A DNA stretch of 64,000 bases from an uncultured candidate division Zixibacteria bacterium. GTDB taxonomy: Bacteria; Zixibacteria; MSB-5A5; RBG-16-43-9. Shown one piece after another: positions 9,308 to 59,265 of this stretch; within the stretch, counting starts at the first letter, position 1, and each line of letters begins with the position of its first letter. The notes beneath the pieces were generated by a model that worked only from the letters and a program-made list of their open reading frames with translations, was not told the origin of the DNA and made no database searches. Position numbers and translations under genes: made by a program. The DNA lies in assembly GCA_963713865.1 (NCBI GenBank), contig OY970208.1, forward strand, positions 672,001 to 736,000, in the 5' to 3' direction.

Positions 9308-9476
9308 TGGCGACCCAAAAAGAAACTTTTGAAAAACCAGAATTATCAAAGTGTCATTCTGAGTCCCCGTAGGGGGCGAAGAATCTCCATATGAATCAAA
9401 GAGATTCTTCGGTCGCTACCCTCCCTCAGAATGACAGGGTGGATTTTCTCAACACACCCTAAAGGATCGCGCTACG
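9308..9476. repeat. Nested REP-like composite with a GTCATTCTGAG...CTCAGAATGAC core
   Basis: Core ~9353-9435 with terminal inverted repeats; similar copy at ~39910-39998. Confidence 0.75.
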
Positions 9477-12145: not shown

Positions 12146-14620
12146 ATGCCCCTTGAAAGAGAAAAAGTAGTTCCGGTCCTTTTAGAAGAGGAGATGAAAT
12201 CCTCCTATATCGACTATTCTATGTCGGTAATCACTGCCCGGGCTCTGCCGGATGTCAGGGATGGGCTGAAACCCTCTAATCGCCGGATCTTAGTAGCGAT
12301 GAACGATCTGAATTTAGCCCCGGGCAGACCTCATCGTAAATGTGCCAAGATAGCAGGTGATACTTCAGGTAATTATCATCCTCACGGTGAGCAGGTGGTC
12401 TACCCCACTTTAGTCCGTATGGCTCAGGATTTCAATATGAGATATACTTTAGTCGATGGACAGGGTAATTTTGGCTCCATCGACGGGGATGCACCAGCAG
12501 CGATGAGATATACAGAGGCGAGGTTTACCCCTTTTGCTATGGAGGTACTGGCTGATTTAGAGAAAGATACTGTCAATTTCGTCCCTAACTATGATGGGAC
12601 CAGAAATGAACCGGTAGTTTTACCTTCTAAATTCCCGAATCTAATCTGCAACGGCTCCTCCGGGATTGCAGTTGGAATGGCGACCAATATCCCCACTCAT
12701 AATCTTTCAGAAGTAGTAGATGCTTTAGTATCTTTAATCGATGACCCGGAATTAGAAGATGAAAAGCTTTTAAAATATATCCAGGGACCTGATTTTCCCA
12801 CCGGTGGTATCATTTACGGCAGGAGCGGGATAAAAGAATATTTTAGAACCGGAAGAGGTCGCCTGGTCTTAAGGGCAAGGGCAAATATTGAAAGGCAGAA
12901 ATCCGGTAAAGAGAGTATCATTGTCACCGAGATTCCTTATCAGATAAATAAAGCCAACCTCTTAGAGAAGATAGCGGATTTAGTCACAAATAAAGTCATA
13001 GAGGGGATCTCAGATTTAAGGGATGAGTCTGACCGGGAAGGGATGAGGATAGTAATAGAGCTGAAAAAGGAAACCCCGGCTGAGATAACCTTGAACCAGC
13101 TCTTTAAGCTGACCCAGATGCAGTCAACCTTCGGGGTGATAATGTTAGCCTTAGTGGATGGGGTGCCTAAGGTTTTAAATCTAAAAGAGCTTCTCATTTT
13201 ATTTATAGAACACCGGCATACAGTCATAATCCGCAGGACAAAATACGAGCTTGCTCAGGCAGAACACAGAGCGCATATACTTGAAGGTTTGAAGATTGCC
13301 CTGGAGAATATAGATGCGGTTATAAAACTGATCAAATCCTCAAAAGACCCGGCTGAGGCTAAAGATGGTTTAATGAAGAAGTTCAATATGACGGAGATTC
13401 AAGCCCAGGCTATACTGGATATGAGACTGCAGAGGCTTACCGGCCTGGAAAGAAAAAAAGTTGAAGAGGAATATTTAGAGTTAATTAAACTGATTGCTAC
13501 CCTGAAAGGGATATTGGAAAGTAAAGCTAAGAGGATGAATATCATTAAAGAGGAGCTTTTGGCTTTAAAGAAAAACTTTGGGGATCTAAGGAGGACTGAG
13601 ATCCGGGAAGAGGAGGAGGAGTTCACCATAGAAGACCTGATCGCCGAAGAAGATATGGTGATCACTGTTACCCATTATGGATATATAAAGAGACTGGGCA
13701 TTGATGCTTACAGGAGACAGGGTCGTGGTGGCAAGGGGGTTATCGGTATAGAGACCAGGGAAGAGGATTTTGTGGAGCATCTTTTTATCGCTTCAACTCA
13801 TGATTATATCCTCTTCTTTACCAATATCGGGAAATGCCACTGGCTTAAAGTTCACGAGATCCCGGTTGGTGGAAAGGTTACCAAAGGTAAATCGATTACC
13901 AACCTTCTGGATTTAGCTGAAGGGGAGAGGATAAGAGCTTTTGCACCGGTTAAGGAGTTTGTTGAGAACCGCTATGTGGTGATGTCGACTAAAAAAGGGA
14001 CCATCAAAAAAACCGAGCTTTCTGCCTTTTCAAACCCGCGAAGGGGTGGGATTAATGCTATAAATATTGACGAAGGGGATGAGCTGATTGAGGCGACCAT
14101 AACTGATGGAACCTGCGATATAGTTTTAGGGACAAAAGAAGGTTTGGCTATAAGATTCCCTGAAGATAAGGTTAGAAGTATGGGTAGGACAGCTTATGGG
14201 GTTAAGGGAATCTCCCTGCGGGGGAAAGCCGATAAAAGCCTTACGGCTCGTAGAGATGAGGTCGTAGGGATGGTGGTGATAAAGAGGGATGCAACATTAC
14301 TGGTAGTAACTGAAAACGGTTTTGGCAAGAGGACTCCAATTTCCGATTACCGGGTAACTAACAGGGGTGGTAAGGGGGTTATAAATGTTAAGACTTCTGA
14401 AAGAAACGGTAAAGTTGTGGCAATAAAAGAGGTTTTGGAAGATGACGAGCTGATGATTATAACCGAGAAGGGGATTATAATAAGACAGCCAGTAAAACAG
14501 ATTAAAGAGATTGGGAGAAATACCCAGGGGGTTAAGCTGATTAATCTGGATGAAGGGGATAGGGTGGTGGATGTGGCACGGGTAGTTAAGAGCGAAGAAG
14601 AAAGTTCAAACGTTCAATAA
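12146..14620 (+). CDS. gyrA: DNA gyrase subunit A (start likely ATG 12146)
   Basis: RALPDVRDGLKP, YHPHG, AAMRYTEA, GyrA-box-like QGRGGKG, beta-pinwheel repeats. Confidence 0.99.
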   Translation: MPLEREKVVPVLLEEEMKSSYIDYSMSVITARALPDVRDGLKPSNRRILVAMNDLNLAPGRPHRKCAKIAGDTSGNYHPHGEQVVYPTLVRMAQDFNMRYTLVDGQGNFGSIDGDAPAAMRYTEARFTPFAMEVLADLEKDTVNFVPNYDGTRNEPVVLPSKFPNLICNGSSGIAVGMATNIPTHNLSEVVDALVSLIDDPELEDEKLLKYIQGPDFPTGGIIYGRSGIKEYFRTGRGRLVLRARANIERQKSGKESIIVTEIPYQINKANLLEKIADLVTNKVIEGISDLRDESDREGMRIVIELKKETPAEITLNQLFKLTQMQSTFGVIMLALVDGVPKVLNLKELLILFIEHRHTVIIRRTKYELAQAEHRAHILEGLKIALENIDAVIKLIKSSKDPAEAKDGLMKKFNMTEIQAQAILDMRLQRLTGLERKKVEEEYLELIKLIATLKGILESKAKRMNIIKEELLALKKNFGDLRRTEIREEEEEFTIEDLIAEEDMVITVTHYGYIKRLGIDAYRRQGRGGKGVIGIETREEDFVEHLFIASTHDYILFFTNIGKCHWLKVHEIPVGGKVTKGKSITNLLDLAEGERIRAFAPVKEFVENRYVVMSTKKGTIKKTELSAFSNPRRGGINAINIDEGDELIEATITDGTCDIVLGTKEGLAIRFPEDKVRSMGRTAYGVKGISLRGKADKSLTARRDEVVGMVVIKRDATLLVVTENGFGKRTPISDYRVTNRGGKGVINVKTSERNGKVVAIKEVLEDDELMIITEKGIIIRQPVKQIKEIGRNTQGVKLINLDEGDRVVDVARVVKSEEESSNVQ
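14229..14255 (+). repeat. 27-bp micro-element copy 1, in frame in gyrA
   Basis: CCGATAAAAGCCTTACGGCTCGTAGAG; other copies at 16819, 37080 and 52470. Confidence 0.9.
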
Positions 14621-15464: not shown

Positions 15465-15682
15465 TCCGTTCGGCTGAGCTCACGATGAAGCCCTCTCCTA
15501 AAAGGAGAGAAGAAATTAAGTAGGGGTGGGGTCACCCCGCCCTTTGGCGGGTCGCCACTACGAAAATATTGTAAGGACAGAACATTGTTCTGTCCCTACG
15601 CTGATTTGTCATTGCGTTCCCGTAGGGGGACTTCTTGCAATGACCAGATTTTCATAGGGGCGTATTGCAATACGCCCCTACC
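15465..15682. repeat. Cluster of REP-like hairpins
   Basis: Adjacent palindromes: GTAGGGGTGGGGTCACCCCGCCC, GGACAGAACATTGTTCTGTCC, GTCATTGC...GCAATGAC, TAGGGGCGTATTGCAATACGCCCCTA. Confidence 0.8.
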
Positions 15683-16818: not shown

Positions 16819-16845
16819 CCGATAAAAGCTTTACGGCTCGTAGAG
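16819..16845 (+). repeat. 27-bp micro-element copy 2, inside a REP-like element
   Basis: CCGATAAAAGCTTTACGGCTCGTAGAG. Confidence 0.9.
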
Positions 16846-35694: not shown

Positions 35695-37026
35695 TTAATA
35701 AATTGTATCCAATTTGCCTAAATTACATTCTTTACAAAGTGTCTGTAGATTATCAAAAGTTGTTTCTCCTCCATTTGAATATGGTATTTTATGGTCAATC
35801 TGTAATTCAATTTCAGGTGGTTTTCTTCCACATATCACACACATAAATTTATCTCTCTGCAAAACTCTAAAACGTAATCGAGGAGATGGAATCCTGGGAG
35901 TTTTCATTTCAATAATTTGAGTTTCTCCAGTTTTTTTTGCTTCAGTTGTTCCCTTTTGGGTTATCAAAGGGGTTACTTCTTGCTTATCCTCTTCAATATT
36001 CGTTTTAAACTCTTTATTTTCTGTATGCTCCTCATAATCACCTTTACGGTCATCAACAAATGAATAAATTGCTTTCGTCCAGCTTCCAAATTTCTTTGCA
36101 AAAACACTCCGTGAAATTTGGCTATATTGATTCATTTCCCTCCATGTTGGCTGTCTTCCAAGCTTTTCCCAAATTCTTTGTAACTCAGAAAAAAGTTCCT
36201 CTCGTGAGTATTTTACATGACCGTCTTTCATACCAATCTTTTTTACGGCATTTTCCCAGCTACCAAAATGATTTTGAAAAGTTCCAATAGAATATTTGCC
36301 TCCATATTTTTTATAAGCTGAAAACTTCAATACCTTTAATTTATTTTTTTCAGCTATTGTCTTTAATTGGGATAATAATAATTCAGGTGTAGCTTGACCT
36401 ACCAATCCTTTTATATCATAACCAAATTTTAAACAAAATACTTCTACTGATTTTTTCCATGTTCCAAATTTTCGCTCGTAAACCCTCATGCTTATATTAC
36501 TATTATCTCTAAATTCATCATAGGAAGGGCGTCTGCCGAACTTACCCCATACTCTTGACATTTCTAAAAATAATTCTTCTTCTGTAAATCCCCTTGGCTT
36601 AGGTTTAATAATTTTAATAATCTTTGGCTGTTTTTTCAAAGATAAAACATTTTCTAACAGGTTCTGCCAGGAATTATGCCCTAAACGCTTTTTTAATGTT
36701 TCTACGCTATATTTTCCACCATTCTTAACATAGAAAGTCTGAGTAAAATACTTTCCTTGATTTAAGTCCTTTATTTTATTTAAATCTTTTGTCAAATCTA
36801 TCGAGTTAATTGGTCCTCTCTCATATGGAAACCCACCTTTTTTCATTGCCTCTGGCCAAGAACCAAAGCGCTTGATTATAGTACTCGTATGAACTCTTGA
36901 ATACCTATTAAAATCCCCTGTCTTTGGGGCTTTATTCATAAAATATGTAGATACTACTCTCTTAATTTCAGCGATTATTGCTTCATCGCTATAATTTGTT
37001 AAACGATTTGGTTCGAAATTATTCAT
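35695..37026 (-). CDS. HNH endonuclease with homing-endonuclease-associated repeats
   Basis: About five repeats ending (F/L)G.W..(A/S/L); C-terminal LRFRVL.RD.F.C..CG...LQIDH.IP.S.GG....NLQTLC..CN..K. Confidence 0.9.
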   Translation of the reverse strand: MNNFEPNRLTNYSDEAIIAEIKRVVSTYFMNKAPKTGDFNRYSRVHTSTIIKRFGSWPEAMKKGGFPYERGPINSIDLTKDLNKIKDLNQGKYFTQTFYVKNGGKYSVETLKKRLGHNSWQNLLENVLSLKKQPKIIKIIKPKPRGFTEEELFLEMSRVWGKFGRRPSYDEFRDNSNISMRVYERKFGTWKKSVEVFCLKFGYDIKGLVGQATPELLLSQLKTIAEKNKLKVLKFSAYKKYGGKYSIGTFQNHFGSWENAVKKIGMKDGHVKYSREELFSELQRIWEKLGRQPTWREMNQYSQISRSVFAKKFGSWTKAIYSFVDDRKGDYEEHTENKEFKTNIEEDKQEVTPLITQKGTTEAKKTGETQIIEMKTPRIPSPRLRFRVLQRDKFMCVICGRKPPEIELQIDHKIPYSNGGETTFDNLQTLCKECNLGKLDTIY

Positions 37027-37079: not shown

Positions 37080-37106
37080 CCGATAAAAGCCTTACGGTTC
37101 GTAGAG
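37080..37106 (+). repeat. 27-bp micro-element copy 3
   Basis: CCGATAAAAGCCTTACGGTTCGTAGAG. Confidence 0.9.
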
Positions 37107-37143: not shown

Positions 37144-38049
37144 TCATTCTCCTAAGTTGCATACTGGAAACTTACTACAGGCTAAACATTCCAACTGCAA
37201 AGTGGTATGGGTAATGCCAAACTTCTCCTGCAAAATTCTATTTGCCTCTTTTAACATCTGGTCGCTTTTGCTCACCATCTGGTCCTCTATAACTAAATGC
37301 CCGGATAAAGCGTAGATCCCTGAAGATATAGTCCAGAGATGCAAATCATGCACATCCTTAACTCCTTTGATCTTCTTGATCTCCCCAGCGATAGTTTCCG
37401 CATTCAGATGTTTAGGAACCGCCTCCAAGAGTATATTACTTGACTCGGTAATCAAACCTATAGCCCCTCTCAAGATTATTCCGCCGATCAAAATTGCAAC
37501 AATCGGGTCAATTAAATAGAATTTAGTAAAAAATATAATTATCCCTGCTACTATTACTCCGATCGAAGACAAGGCGTCCCCTAAGATATGCAAGAATGCT
37601 CCTCTGATATTCAGATTACCCCTGCTTGAGCCTTTTAATATTAAGATCCCAATTATATTTACCACAAGCCCTAAGGTTGCAACTCCTAACATCAAAGGTG
37701 CTTTTATCTGCGGAGGGGCAAGAAAGCGTCTATAAGCTTCATAGAATATGTATCCAGAAATAAAAATCAAGGTTACTCCATTCAAAAGGGCAACTAAGAT
37801 TTCCGTTCTGTGAAATCCGTAGGTTCTCCTGGCATCTGCCGGTCTTCTGGATAATTTTAAAGCAAAAAAACTCAAAGCCAGGGCTAAAGTATCGGTGAGC
37901 ATATGCCCGGCATCACCGATTAGGGACAAACTACCGGATAATATCCCACCCAGAAACTCCACTAAGGTCATCAGTGCAGTTAATAATAGAGGAATTACTA
38001 AAACCTTTGGCTCAGGTTTGAAATTATTGTTGTGATTATGCTCAGACAT
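37144..38049 (-). CDS. Cation diffusion facilitator (CzcD/ZitB-like)
   Basis: SL.L..DAGHMLTD, TYGFHR.E, N.RGAFLH.LGD, VHDLHLW, HTTLQLE; start ATG 38049. Confidence 0.93.
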   Translation of the reverse strand: MSEHNHNNNFKPEPKVLVIPLLLTALMTLVEFLGGILSGSLSLIGDAGHMLTDTLALALSFFALKLSRRPADARRTYGFHRTEILVALLNGVTLIFISGYIFYEAYRRFLAPPQIKAPLMLGVATLGLVVNIIGILILKGSSRGNLNIRGAFLHILGDALSSIGVIVAGIIIFFTKFYLIDPIVAILIGGIILRGAIGLITESSNILLEAVPKHLNAETIAGEIKKIKGVKDVHDLHLWTISSGIYALSGHLVIEDQMVSKSDQMLKEANRILQEKFGITHTTLQLECLACSKFPVCNLGE

Positions 38050-38078
38050 ATTGATCTTTCGTAGCGTCCTCACTTTTT

Positions 38079-39067: not shown

Positions 39068-39301
39068 TATTTACATCCGTTTTTTAAGATTCAAATTTCT
39101 TTCTAAGGTAGCGTACCCACTCTCGTCCTGCGGATCCGTTAATAGGATGAGGACGAGCATATTTCCCCTCCCTTGATGGGAGGGGATGAAGGGGAGGGTG
39201 AGATTATTTTTATTCCCCTCTCCCTAACCCTCTCCCACAAGGGGAGAGGGAATCATATCTCCGCTACCAGAGCAAGCCCTTGTTGGGCACGAGTGGCATC
39301 G

Positions 39302-52359: not shown

Positions 52360-52469
52360 GACGGGAGACGATAGAAGATAGCGTTGCCTCTTCTAAGGCA
52401 ACGGATGATTTCAAATTCCCCTCCCTTGATGGGAGGGGTAAGGGGAGGGTGACCCCTCTCCCGCAAGCG

Positions 52470-52535
52470 CCGATAAAAGCTTGACGGTTCTAAGGGCTAC
52501 CCCGCCTAGCGGCGGAGGTTACGCTTCTCGTAGAG
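52470..52535 (+). repeat. 27-bp micro-element copy 4, itself interrupted
   Basis: CCGATAAAAGCTTGACGG-[~39 nt containing CCGCCTAGCGGCGG]-CTCGTAGAG. Confidence 0.75.
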
Positions 52536-59062: not shown

Positions 59063-59265
59063 TACGGAGATTGTCGTTAGCTCCCCGCGAGAGGAGGGAG
59101 GAGAAGATCCCCTCTCCCCTTGTGGGAGAGGGTTAGGGAGAGGGGAAAATAAAAATGATATCACCCTCCCTTAGTCCCTCCCATCAAGGGAAGGAGAGAA
59201 CTTTTAGGTTCACACATAGGCGATCCGCCTTTGGCAAATCAGCCCATCCAAAAAATGGAGGATTT

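Follow-up and report, generated by a model that had tools for sequence, protein, structure and literature searches.

A 27-nucleotide in-frame insertion in gyrA represents a family of small, probably mobile hairpin elements in Zixibacteria

The DNA analysed here, referred to as the window, is a stretch of 64,000 nucleotides (nt) that corresponds to positions 672001-736000 of the single-contig genome of a Zixibacteria bacterium (G000; 2,723,046 bp, G+C 40%). It contains gyrA, the gene for subunit A of a type IIA topoisomerase, and Pfam matches assign to its product a DNA_topoisoIV domain and six gyrase C-terminal blades. This gene carries a 27-nt element, which an initial annotation made from the letters of the window had described at two further positions as exact copies and at a fourth as an interrupted copy (Table 1). 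All four are present, the last being a 66-nt long-form member of the same family. A search for the 27-mer pattern with up to three mismatches gave three matches in the window, all on the + strand and with 0 mismatches, and 0/100 dinucleotide-preserving shuffles produced any match. As the initial annotation also stated, no mobilising enzyme is encoded in the window. We regard the 27-mer as the minimal and commonest form of a lineage-specific, non-autonomous family resembling repetitive extragenic palindromes (REPs), probably moved in trans by a Y1 enzyme of the REP-associated tyrosine transposase (RAYT) or IS200 type, a reading to which we assign a probability of roughly 55%.

Table 1. Elements, empty targets and gyrA in the window (window coordinates), and Y1_Tnp genes of G000 (genome coordinates); ^ marks the insertion point; ORF, open reading frame; aa, amino acids
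Feature	Position	Strand	Basis or detail
gyrA (type IIA topoisomerase subunit A), 835 aa	12113..14620	+	ORF; PF00521 at 1.7e-162; PF03989 in 6 stretches
27-nt copy in frame in gyrA, adds ADKSLTARR in a C-terminal beta-propeller blade loop	14229..14255	+	pattern match, ORF, empty sites in relatives
27-nt copy inside host hairpin repeat CCTCCTTTGATGG^GAGGGGATAAAGGGGAGGG, between two - strand genes	16819..16845	+	pattern match
27-nt copy with T at position 19, in the 118-nt spacer between - strand genes 35695..37026 and 37144..38073	37080..37106	+	
66-nt long form in host repeat CCCCTCTCCCGCAAGCG^AGGGGA	52470..52535	+	start CCGATAAAAGC, end CTCGTAGAG
Uninterrupted host repeat (empty target)	39170..39184	+	
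Uninterrupted host repeat (empty target)	52423..52437	+	
Uninterrupted host repeat (empty target)	59176..59190	-	
Y1 gene (set L016-L023)	489120-489794		
Y1 gene (set L016-L023)	801428-801868		
Y1 gene (set L016-L023)	1449548-1449955		
Y1 gene (set L016-L023)	1501786-1502337		
Y1 gene (set L016-L023)	1824898-1825404		
Y1 gene (set L016-L023)	2205429-2205875		
Y1 gene (set L016-L023)	2527191-2527871		
Y1 gene (set L016-L023)	2548250-2549023		

The gyrA copy is a true insertion. When the C-terminal 239 residues of GyrA were searched in 31 related genomes, the match was 717 nt long in G000 and G002, 690 nt in G001 and in one gyrA gene of bin G007 (G007:C3) (99-100% protein identity), and 675-690 nt in the remaining genomes; G001 and G002 belong to the same genus as G000. 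The DNA alignment has a clean 27-nt gap in 6/8 rows, and at the protein level the nine residues are absent from 10/12 C-terminal domains. The resulting empty form, GK^DEVVG, is the one that the initial annotation had obtained by deleting the 27-mer, and it is found in G001, in G007:C3 and in all more distant relatives aligned, so that ADKSLTARR is not a conserved part of GyrA in relatives without the repeat. Contigs from four runs of four independent studies enter the element from both flanks, one contig of 356 nt bridges the whole insertion, and the site is likewise filled in metagenome contig L237. Because the same-site insertion recurs in all of these, the gyrA copy is not an artefact. An assembly or library origin, against which the initial annotation had advised a check, has a negligible probability, given that the same site is filled in G002, a second species-level genome, and that the family occurs in 10 genomes and in metagenome stretches. 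The empty allele was not among the matches listed for the four runs, which says little, since these are contigs and not reads.

The gyrA copies of G000 and G002 are identical at 27/27 positions, with 8 differences in the 180 bases that flank them. The 239-residue fragment was modelled with AlphaFold (mean predicted local distance difference test, pLDDT, of 77) solely to locate the insert, which falls in a low-confidence coil before a strand, with residues 109-116 at pLDDT <50. The insertion point falls in the loop of a potential CCCTGCG/CGTAGGG hairpin (-14.6 kcal/mol). Native gyrA contains, at window positions 14256-14275 and 6 nt downstream of the insertion point, the sequence TCGTAGGG, which resembles the 3' module of the element and pairs with the upstream CCCTGCG, placing the insertion site in the hairpin loop. 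Bin G007 holds two gyrA genes (C3 and C41), with 99% and 90% protein identity to that of G000, and is probably a mixture of two related organisms.

Filled and empty sites could also be paired in nadC (QRPTase), in a DUF6599 gene and at five positions filled in G001 and empty in G000. The nadC gene has a length of 843 nt in the two filled genomes, G000 and G001, and is shorter where the site is empty, at 816 nt in G002 and 810-813 nt in five other aligned genomes; its copy is intact in G001 (ADKSLTARR) and decayed at 7/27 bases in G000 (ADKSLKVPE). In the DUF6599 gene, a 36-nt variant adding ADNPPQADTARR is present in G000 and G001 and absent from 6/8 aligned rows. Among the 34 27-mers of G001, 8 are also found in G000, 5 are empty there and 21 are unresolved, their flanks being repeated or not collinear. 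The junction is ambiguous by 1 nt (G) in the filled/empty pairs, or by 2 nt in gyrA, and the element ends, CCGAT... and ...GTAGAG, are not inverted repeats. All of these pairs bear out the precise insertion, with about 1 nt (G) of ambiguity or duplication and no terminal inverted repeats, that had been proposed from the window. [quoted passage not shown]

The presence pattern conflicts with the history of the host genes. A maximum-likelihood tree of the gyrA locus, computed with the insert removed, gave (G001,(G000,(G002,G007C3))) with support of 100/99 and 100/100 and site patterns of 82 versus 8 and 11; in the order G001, G000, G002, G007C3 the site is empty, filled, filled and empty. Such states require a gain and a seamless loss, the empty gyrA lineage being 97.8% identical to a filled one, or two gains at one and the same position, or a conversion tract spanning under about 160 bp. 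At the protein level, the nadC product of G000 has 94% amino acid identity to that of the empty G002, compared with 88% to that of the filled G001. The conflict of the presence pattern with the gyrA tree and with the nadC identity ranks suggests repeated insertion at the same site or seamless loss.

The initial annotation had noted that a G precedes each copy in the window, which is the case in 4/4, and that removal of the copy at 16819 restores a host repeat; the uninterrupted repeat, CCCTTGATGGGAGGG, indeed occurs at three other window positions. In the copy at 37080, T19 changes the G-C pair that hairpin 1 forms with the flanking G into G-T and gives T-G at the mini-hairpin pair 19-27, and metagenome loci L205 and L261 also carry a copy at this site. 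The 66-nt form has its first 11 and last 9 bases in common with the 27-mer, and between these shared 5' and 3' modules lies an extra GC-rich hairpin, CCCGCC-TAGC-GGCGG.

Across the whole of G000, the 27-mer pattern with up to five mismatches has 21 matches (12 on the + and 9 on the - strand). Anchoring at both ends yielded 51 hits, and after removal of six that were judged by eye to be chance matches (genome positions 119125, 297420, 512990, 2151078, 2204342 and 2489277) a curated set of 45 copies of 26-70 nt remained. Of these, 27 lie on the + and 18 on the - strand, so that the confinement to one strand stated in the initial annotation holds within the window and not genome-wide. The set comprises 22 copies of 27 nt, 6 of 46, 5 of 48 and 2 of 45 nt, and single copies of 26, 28, 35, 36, 37, 38, 47, 57, 66 and 70 nt. 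The 27-mer, at first taken for a stand-alone unit, is therefore better described as the commonest size class (22/45) of a family with shared ends. In the long forms, additional GC-rich mini-hairpins stand between the modules, or TCCGCC-N4-GGCGGA takes the place of the loop. At one orthologous site (L113 versus G000 71504-71551), situated within a GTAGGGGCGG^AGTTTATCTCCGCCC repeat, G001 has a 27-mer and G000 a 48-mer, which differ by a 21-nt internal GC-rich segment; because the two forms are allelic at this site, the size classes interconvert in place. The inverted doublets that are the hallmark of REPINs (REP doublets forming hairpins) were absent, with 45/45 copies of G000 being singlets and no two lying within 400 bp; the nearest pair is 1663 bp apart, in the same orientation. 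A search for a long element bounded by the 5' and 3' modules returned only short or decayed copies.

In 285 genomes of the phylum, the 27-mer with up to two mismatches was found in 10, namely in 9/9 genomes of one Zixibacteria family (f1; G000-G008) and, as one copy, in G010. The counts at this threshold were 34 in G001, 24 in G007, 21 in G006, 20 in G000, 6 in G002, 5 in G008, 3 in G004 and 1 each in G003 and G005, and a reversed-pattern control gave 0 matches in every genome. Scanning one genome per species with the exact pattern produced 31 stretches in metagenome-assembled genomes (MAGs) labelled Zixibacteria, as well as one bin labelled Ignavibacteria and one contig labelled Terriglobales. 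The latter (L054) has 68-76% DNA identity to several G000 genes and a G+C content of 43%, and is probably a misbinned Zixibacteria contig; on our reading of the scan, public-genome matches appear to be confined to Zixibacteria-type MAGs. In metagenomes, the best 80 of 96 matching stretches, on which the metagenome figures rest, contained 78 copies at 66 distinct sites. Identical 27-mers recur in different sequence contexts.

Copies inside ORFs are 27, 36, 48 or 57 nt long, every one a multiple of 3, whereas intergenic copies also measure 26, 28, 35, 37, 38, 46, 47 and 70 nt. This agrees with the earlier proposal that a length divisible by three lets copies persist in genes. Four more ORFs of G000 contain copies, recorded from the G000 sequence alone, namely an rve_3-like gene (weak match), a LiaF-like gene, an ORF of 154 aa and the N-terminus of a TPR/PEGA protein. 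Metagenome contigs, scanned for coding copies in the sense frame only, hold copies in a Y-family polymerase (IMS; dinB-like) between the thumb and the C-terminal domain, in uvrA just past the interaction domain, in a sigma-54 activator between TPR repeats and ATPase domain, and in a PDZ-bearing protease just past the PDZ domain, 24 residues from the C-terminus. These host ORFs are uninterrupted and matched by Pfam, in the polymerase, UvrA and sigma-54 activator with domains flanking the insert on both sides. DNA-metabolism genes are in excess among the hosts, which, though based on small numbers, echoes what has been reported for REPs (Di Nocera 2013, PMC3733652). All verified coding copies lie on the sense strand and read (A/V)DKS(L/F)T..RR, and in conserved genes the copies with a length divisible by three persist in frame, lengthening the protein by a hydrophilic loop of 9-19 residues at a blade turn or domain boundary. 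Several other copies stand directly 5' of a Shine-Dalgarno sequence; a crude count near gene starts, with internal ORF starts included, gave 9 sense versus 5 antisense of 45 and was not used as support.

The 27-mer can be described as a 5' hairpin, (G)YCG-A-TAA / loop AAGCN / TTA-CGR(C), and a 3' tail, CYC-GTA-GRG, which is able to form a 3-bp mini-hairpin with a GTA loop; GNA triloops have special stability. Optional GC-rich hairpins lie between the two modules or replace the loop. In 83 distinct 27-mer copies, pair 1-18 is CG in 47, TA in 31, TG in 4 and CA in 1, and pair 20-26 is TA in 51, CG in 28 and TG in 3. Loop position 12 is free to vary (T 36, C 24, A 23), and G22, T23, A24 and G25 are each kept in 79-82 of the copies. 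Judged from this covariation, the sequences support the 5' hairpin and the CYC-GTA-GRG mini-hairpin as probable structures. The pairing intermediates are mostly top-strand G-T, which outnumber C-A as expected of a folded RNA or single strand. Together with the copies beside Shine-Dalgarno sequences and the uniform sense reading of the coding copies, this would be in line with a motif kept for its function as an RNA or DNA signal or as a useful peptide loop, its similarity being due to selection. We nevertheless consider such an explanation very improbable. A search of Rfam at permissive thresholds with the gyrA copy and the 66-nt form gave nothing relevant (all E >2, far below gathering thresholds), the copies occupy coding, intergenic, sense and antisense contexts, and the gyrA, nadC and DUF6599 genes of close relatives lack the insert. 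Moreover, the nadC copy of G000 has decayed as described above, and identical boundaries are not explained by function alone.

The target was derived from 208 copies of all sources, clustered by their flanks into 56 site clusters with one representative each (background G = 0.20). Its consensus is A-R-G^R-N-G-A with the core ARG^RNG. Upstream of the insertion point, A occupies -3 in 32/56, R -2 in 53/56 and G -1 in 52/56 clusters; downstream, R is found at +1 in 47/56, G at +3 in 46/56 and A at +4 in 35/56. In the metagenomes, G stands at -1 in 66/66 distinct sites. Of the reconstructed empty sites (n=45), 60% fold with <= -8 kcal/mol, compared with 15% of random and 22% of RGRRG-matched sites, and the insertion point typically lies within the hairpin loop or at its 3' edge. 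Among the targets are other REP families, Shine-Dalgarno regions and purine-rich coding sequence, and the host contexts cover at least five further families of repeats. The bottom strand has a C-Y dinucleotide at either element junction.

The largest site clusters contain 37, 19, 17 and 12 copies, and this concentration of most copies in few host-repeat contexts would be expected if no dedicated enzyme existed and if template switching or slippage at hairpins, combined with short-tract recombination, had left most copies as passengers of RAYT-spread host REPs. The allelic 27-mer and 48-mer, which indicate that internal hairpins are gained or lost in place, fit such an origin, and so would the gyrA discordance if it reflects a short conversion tract. 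Hairpins with 1-2 nt flanking repeats are, in addition, prone to deletion. However, 22/56 clusters are singletons at unrelated unique sequences, conserved genes included, the exact common ends and the target motif would not result from template switching without homology, and identical 27-mers are found in different contexts. We therefore regard an origin without an enzyme as improbable.

Eight Y1_Tnp (PF01797) genes are present in G000. Each of them (RAYT/IS200-like) is bordered by its own REP-like hairpin family, several with the canonical 5' GTAG, and eight REPtron-like loci are an unusually rich set for a 2.7-Mb genome. The only other transposase family found in G000 is IS110, with three identical elements, and TnpB, reverse transcriptase, rve and DDE_Tnp_1 gave no match there. 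No cognate enzyme was found, and we infer the link to Y1 from the abundance of Y1 genes, the single-strand hairpin-loop targets, the lack of terminal inverted repeats and target-site duplications, the apparent seamless loss and the bottom-strand C-Y junctions. In the mechanism that we propose, the element would move as single-stranded DNA by a seamless cut-or-copy and paste, on which an HUH tyrosine (Y1) transposase of the RAYT/IS200 type, probably one of the eight encoded in G000, would act in trans. The bottom-strand junctions are of the same type as the CT or CA sites that TnpA-REP cuts in single-stranded REPs, 5' and 3' of the hairpin (Corneloup 2021, PMC8266576).

Several observations weigh against movement by a Y1 enzyme. 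Family copies on both sides were found for 0/8 Y1 genes of G000 and for 0/28 Y1 loci scanned in G001, G002, G007 and G008 (those of G003-G006 entered the ortholog table only), and the one family copy inside a REP adjoining a RAYT is incidental. No Y1 ortholog tracks the abundance of the family across the nine f1 genomes, a comparison limited by MAG incompleteness, and no tandem or circle junction, in which a 3' end is joined to a 5' end, was found in G000 and the fetched loci. The polarity is unlike that of canonical REPs, in that GTAG follows the hairpin on its 3' side and the complementary strand has CTAC as the tetranucleotide 5' of it. The hairpin is weak (-1.8 to -4.7 kcal/mol; z of -0.2 to -1.6 against shuffles). 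Because its folding energy is no better than that of shuffles, the structure rests on the two covarying pairs. For the most part these pairs separate two sublineages, but a recombinant type (T-A with T-A) also occurs. Orientation relative to replication is 27-28 versus 17-18, which, with an irregular GC skew and uncertain placement of origin and terminus, amounts to no clear strand bias, unlike in IS200/IS605 elements; the leading-strand bias suspected from the window is thus not significant genome-wide. Finally, short-tract recombination could also yield the gyrA and nadC discordance, and many copies may have spread passively inside host REPs, as the large site clusters suggest.

Some of these points would suit a family that is mobile but moved by something other than a Y1/HUH enzyme, be it a recombinase of the IS110 type, a tyrosine recombinase of the integron type that works on folded single strands, or some activity not recognised so far. 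Apart from the missing cognate Y1 gene and a GTAG polarity that does not fit known RAYT substrates, the target consensus extends to either side of the insertion point, which is atypical of IS200/IS605 (left flank only), and the IS110 elements are themselves inserted into REP hairpins. We consider such a mobiliser unlikely, but less so than an origin without an enzyme. IS110 and integron reactions require much longer donor sites, no R''/R' core-site motifs (consensus RYYYAAC/GTTRRRY) are visible in the 27-mer, and Y1 is by far the most numerous transposase type found. IS110 was also rejected as the source of the element ends, to which its own ends bear no likeness. Movement in trans by a Y1 enzyme hence remains the explanation that we favour.

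In comparison with known systems, neither the size of the element nor its insertion into coding sequence is new in kind. The initial annotation was right that it is far smaller than MITEs and Rickettsia palindromic elements (RPEs), but this is not unprecedented. REPs measure 20-40 bp, often have variable internal hairpins and may sit inside other palindromes (PMC3733652), one of those studied is 23 nt long (PMC8266576), and in-frame intragenic REPs are described, including in uvrA, uvrB and polymerase genes (PMC3733652). The family resembles the GTAG-REP/RAYT system in its size class, in the probable stem-loop with a GTAG tail, in size variants created by internal GC-rich hairpins and in the tens of copies per genome. 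Further likenesses are the insertion into palindromes, the in-frame intragenic copies (replication and repair genes), the Y1-rich genome and the bottom-strand C-Y junctions. However, GTAG lies 3' of the hairpin in the 27-mer, 2 nt from the end and partly within its own mini-hairpin, whereas the REP tag is unpaired, terminal and 5' of the stem-loop on the transposase-bound strand. GTAG-REP stems have 5-13 bp; that of the 27-mer has 4+3 bp with a bulge and is supported by covariation at one pair, but it is AT-rich and weak and has the low z scores given above. The family also consists of singlets only, without dimers or bacterial interspersed mosaic elements (BIMEs), and no RAYT is flanked by it to form a REPtron. 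The clear target consensus and the several seamless filled/empty pairs found here are not reported for REPs in the parts of PMC3733652 and PMC8266576 considered. Based on tag polarity, the weak AT-rich hairpin, the restriction to singlets, the lack of a REPtron and how well the insertions are documented, we file the family as REP-like and not as a member of the GTAG-REP superfamily.

According to Bertels and Rainey (2011, PMC3116915), REPINs move as inverted doublets, whereas singlets are remnants that no longer move; mobilisation of REPINs in trans is attributed to a Y1 enzyme encoded in single copy, with few excision reads in populations (PMC3116915). Our family shares with them the miniature, non-autonomous and hairpin-forming nature, yet its copies are singlets (45/45) and insertion-polymorphic. 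With IS200/IS605 elements and their hairpin-ended miniature derivatives, named palindrome-associated transposable elements (PATEs), it has in common the absence of terminal inverted repeats and target duplications, insertion beside a short specific sequence (-1 G, -2 R), apparent seamless excision and a probable dependence on single-strand hairpins. Those elements, however, have a hairpin at each end, guide tetranucleotides, a lagging-strand template bias and ends shared with an autonomous insertion sequence, none of which was seen here. No ends shared with a TnpA-encoding insertion sequence were found, there being no long bounded element and no TnpB, and the Y1 flanks are unrelated. RPEs are about 100-150 bp long, four to five times longer than this element. 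They resemble the family in their in-frame insertion into functional ORFs (here gyrA, nadC and DUF6599, with empty sites in relatives) and differ in phylum and in exceeding 26-70 nt, a separation made by description and not by sequence comparison. They are palindromic repeats found in frame in genes with functional products and are treated as a separate family (PMC3733652). In the literature considered, we found no prior description of the family in Zixibacteria and no empty-site evidence for intragenic REPs; the supplementary lists of PMC3733652 may hold comparable cases.

The spread of REPs has been described as poorly understood (PMC8266576), and direct evidence of their movement is sparse, consisting in PMC3116915 of the few excision reads. 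The family is a very small and easily compared example of this type of mobile DNA. It joins features that are rarely combined, namely exact boundaries, a target logo from 56 clusters and several natural filled/empty allele pairs from genomes with 91-98% identity, some of them requiring repeated insertion or a seamless loss. The mobiliser of one REP-like hairpin thereby becomes open to test, with eight candidate enzymes and an easily synthesised 28-nt substrate. In addition, nine extra residues at a blade turn or domain boundary are tolerated by a conserved type II topoisomerase subunit and by NadC, and probably also by UvrA and by a polymerase of the Y family. It is conceivable, although on balance doubtful, that a single 27-nt hairpin is a complete substrate for sequence-specific, seamless insertion and excision, without a doublet or a flanking transposase and with a tag polarity opposite to that of known REPs. 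If so, the element would be among the smallest mobile DNAs with a defined target, would imply either a domesticated Y1 enzyme that recognises its substrate in a new way or a hitherto undescribed activity, and would be a recurrent source of 9-residue loops in GyrA, UvrA and DinB-type polymerase.

Three minor observations concern the G000 genome as a whole. Its cumulative GC skew is not a simple V, falling from 1.9 Mb through 0 to 0.45 Mb, staying flat to 1.05 Mb and rising thereafter, with a negative net total, and origin and terminus can therefore not be placed with confidence. The IS110 copies (L055-L057, at about 197 kb, 1082 kb and 2436 kb) each lie inside the hairpin repeat GCGACCCTGAAAGGGTCGC...GTCGCTAC. 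Many other short repeats are centred on CCCGTAGGG and are of the type GTCATTCTGAG..CCCGTAGGG..GAAGAATC, for example at 9366-9400 and 15619-15650 of the window; because these carry it as well, the CGTAGRG motif is common to several repeat families of this genome.

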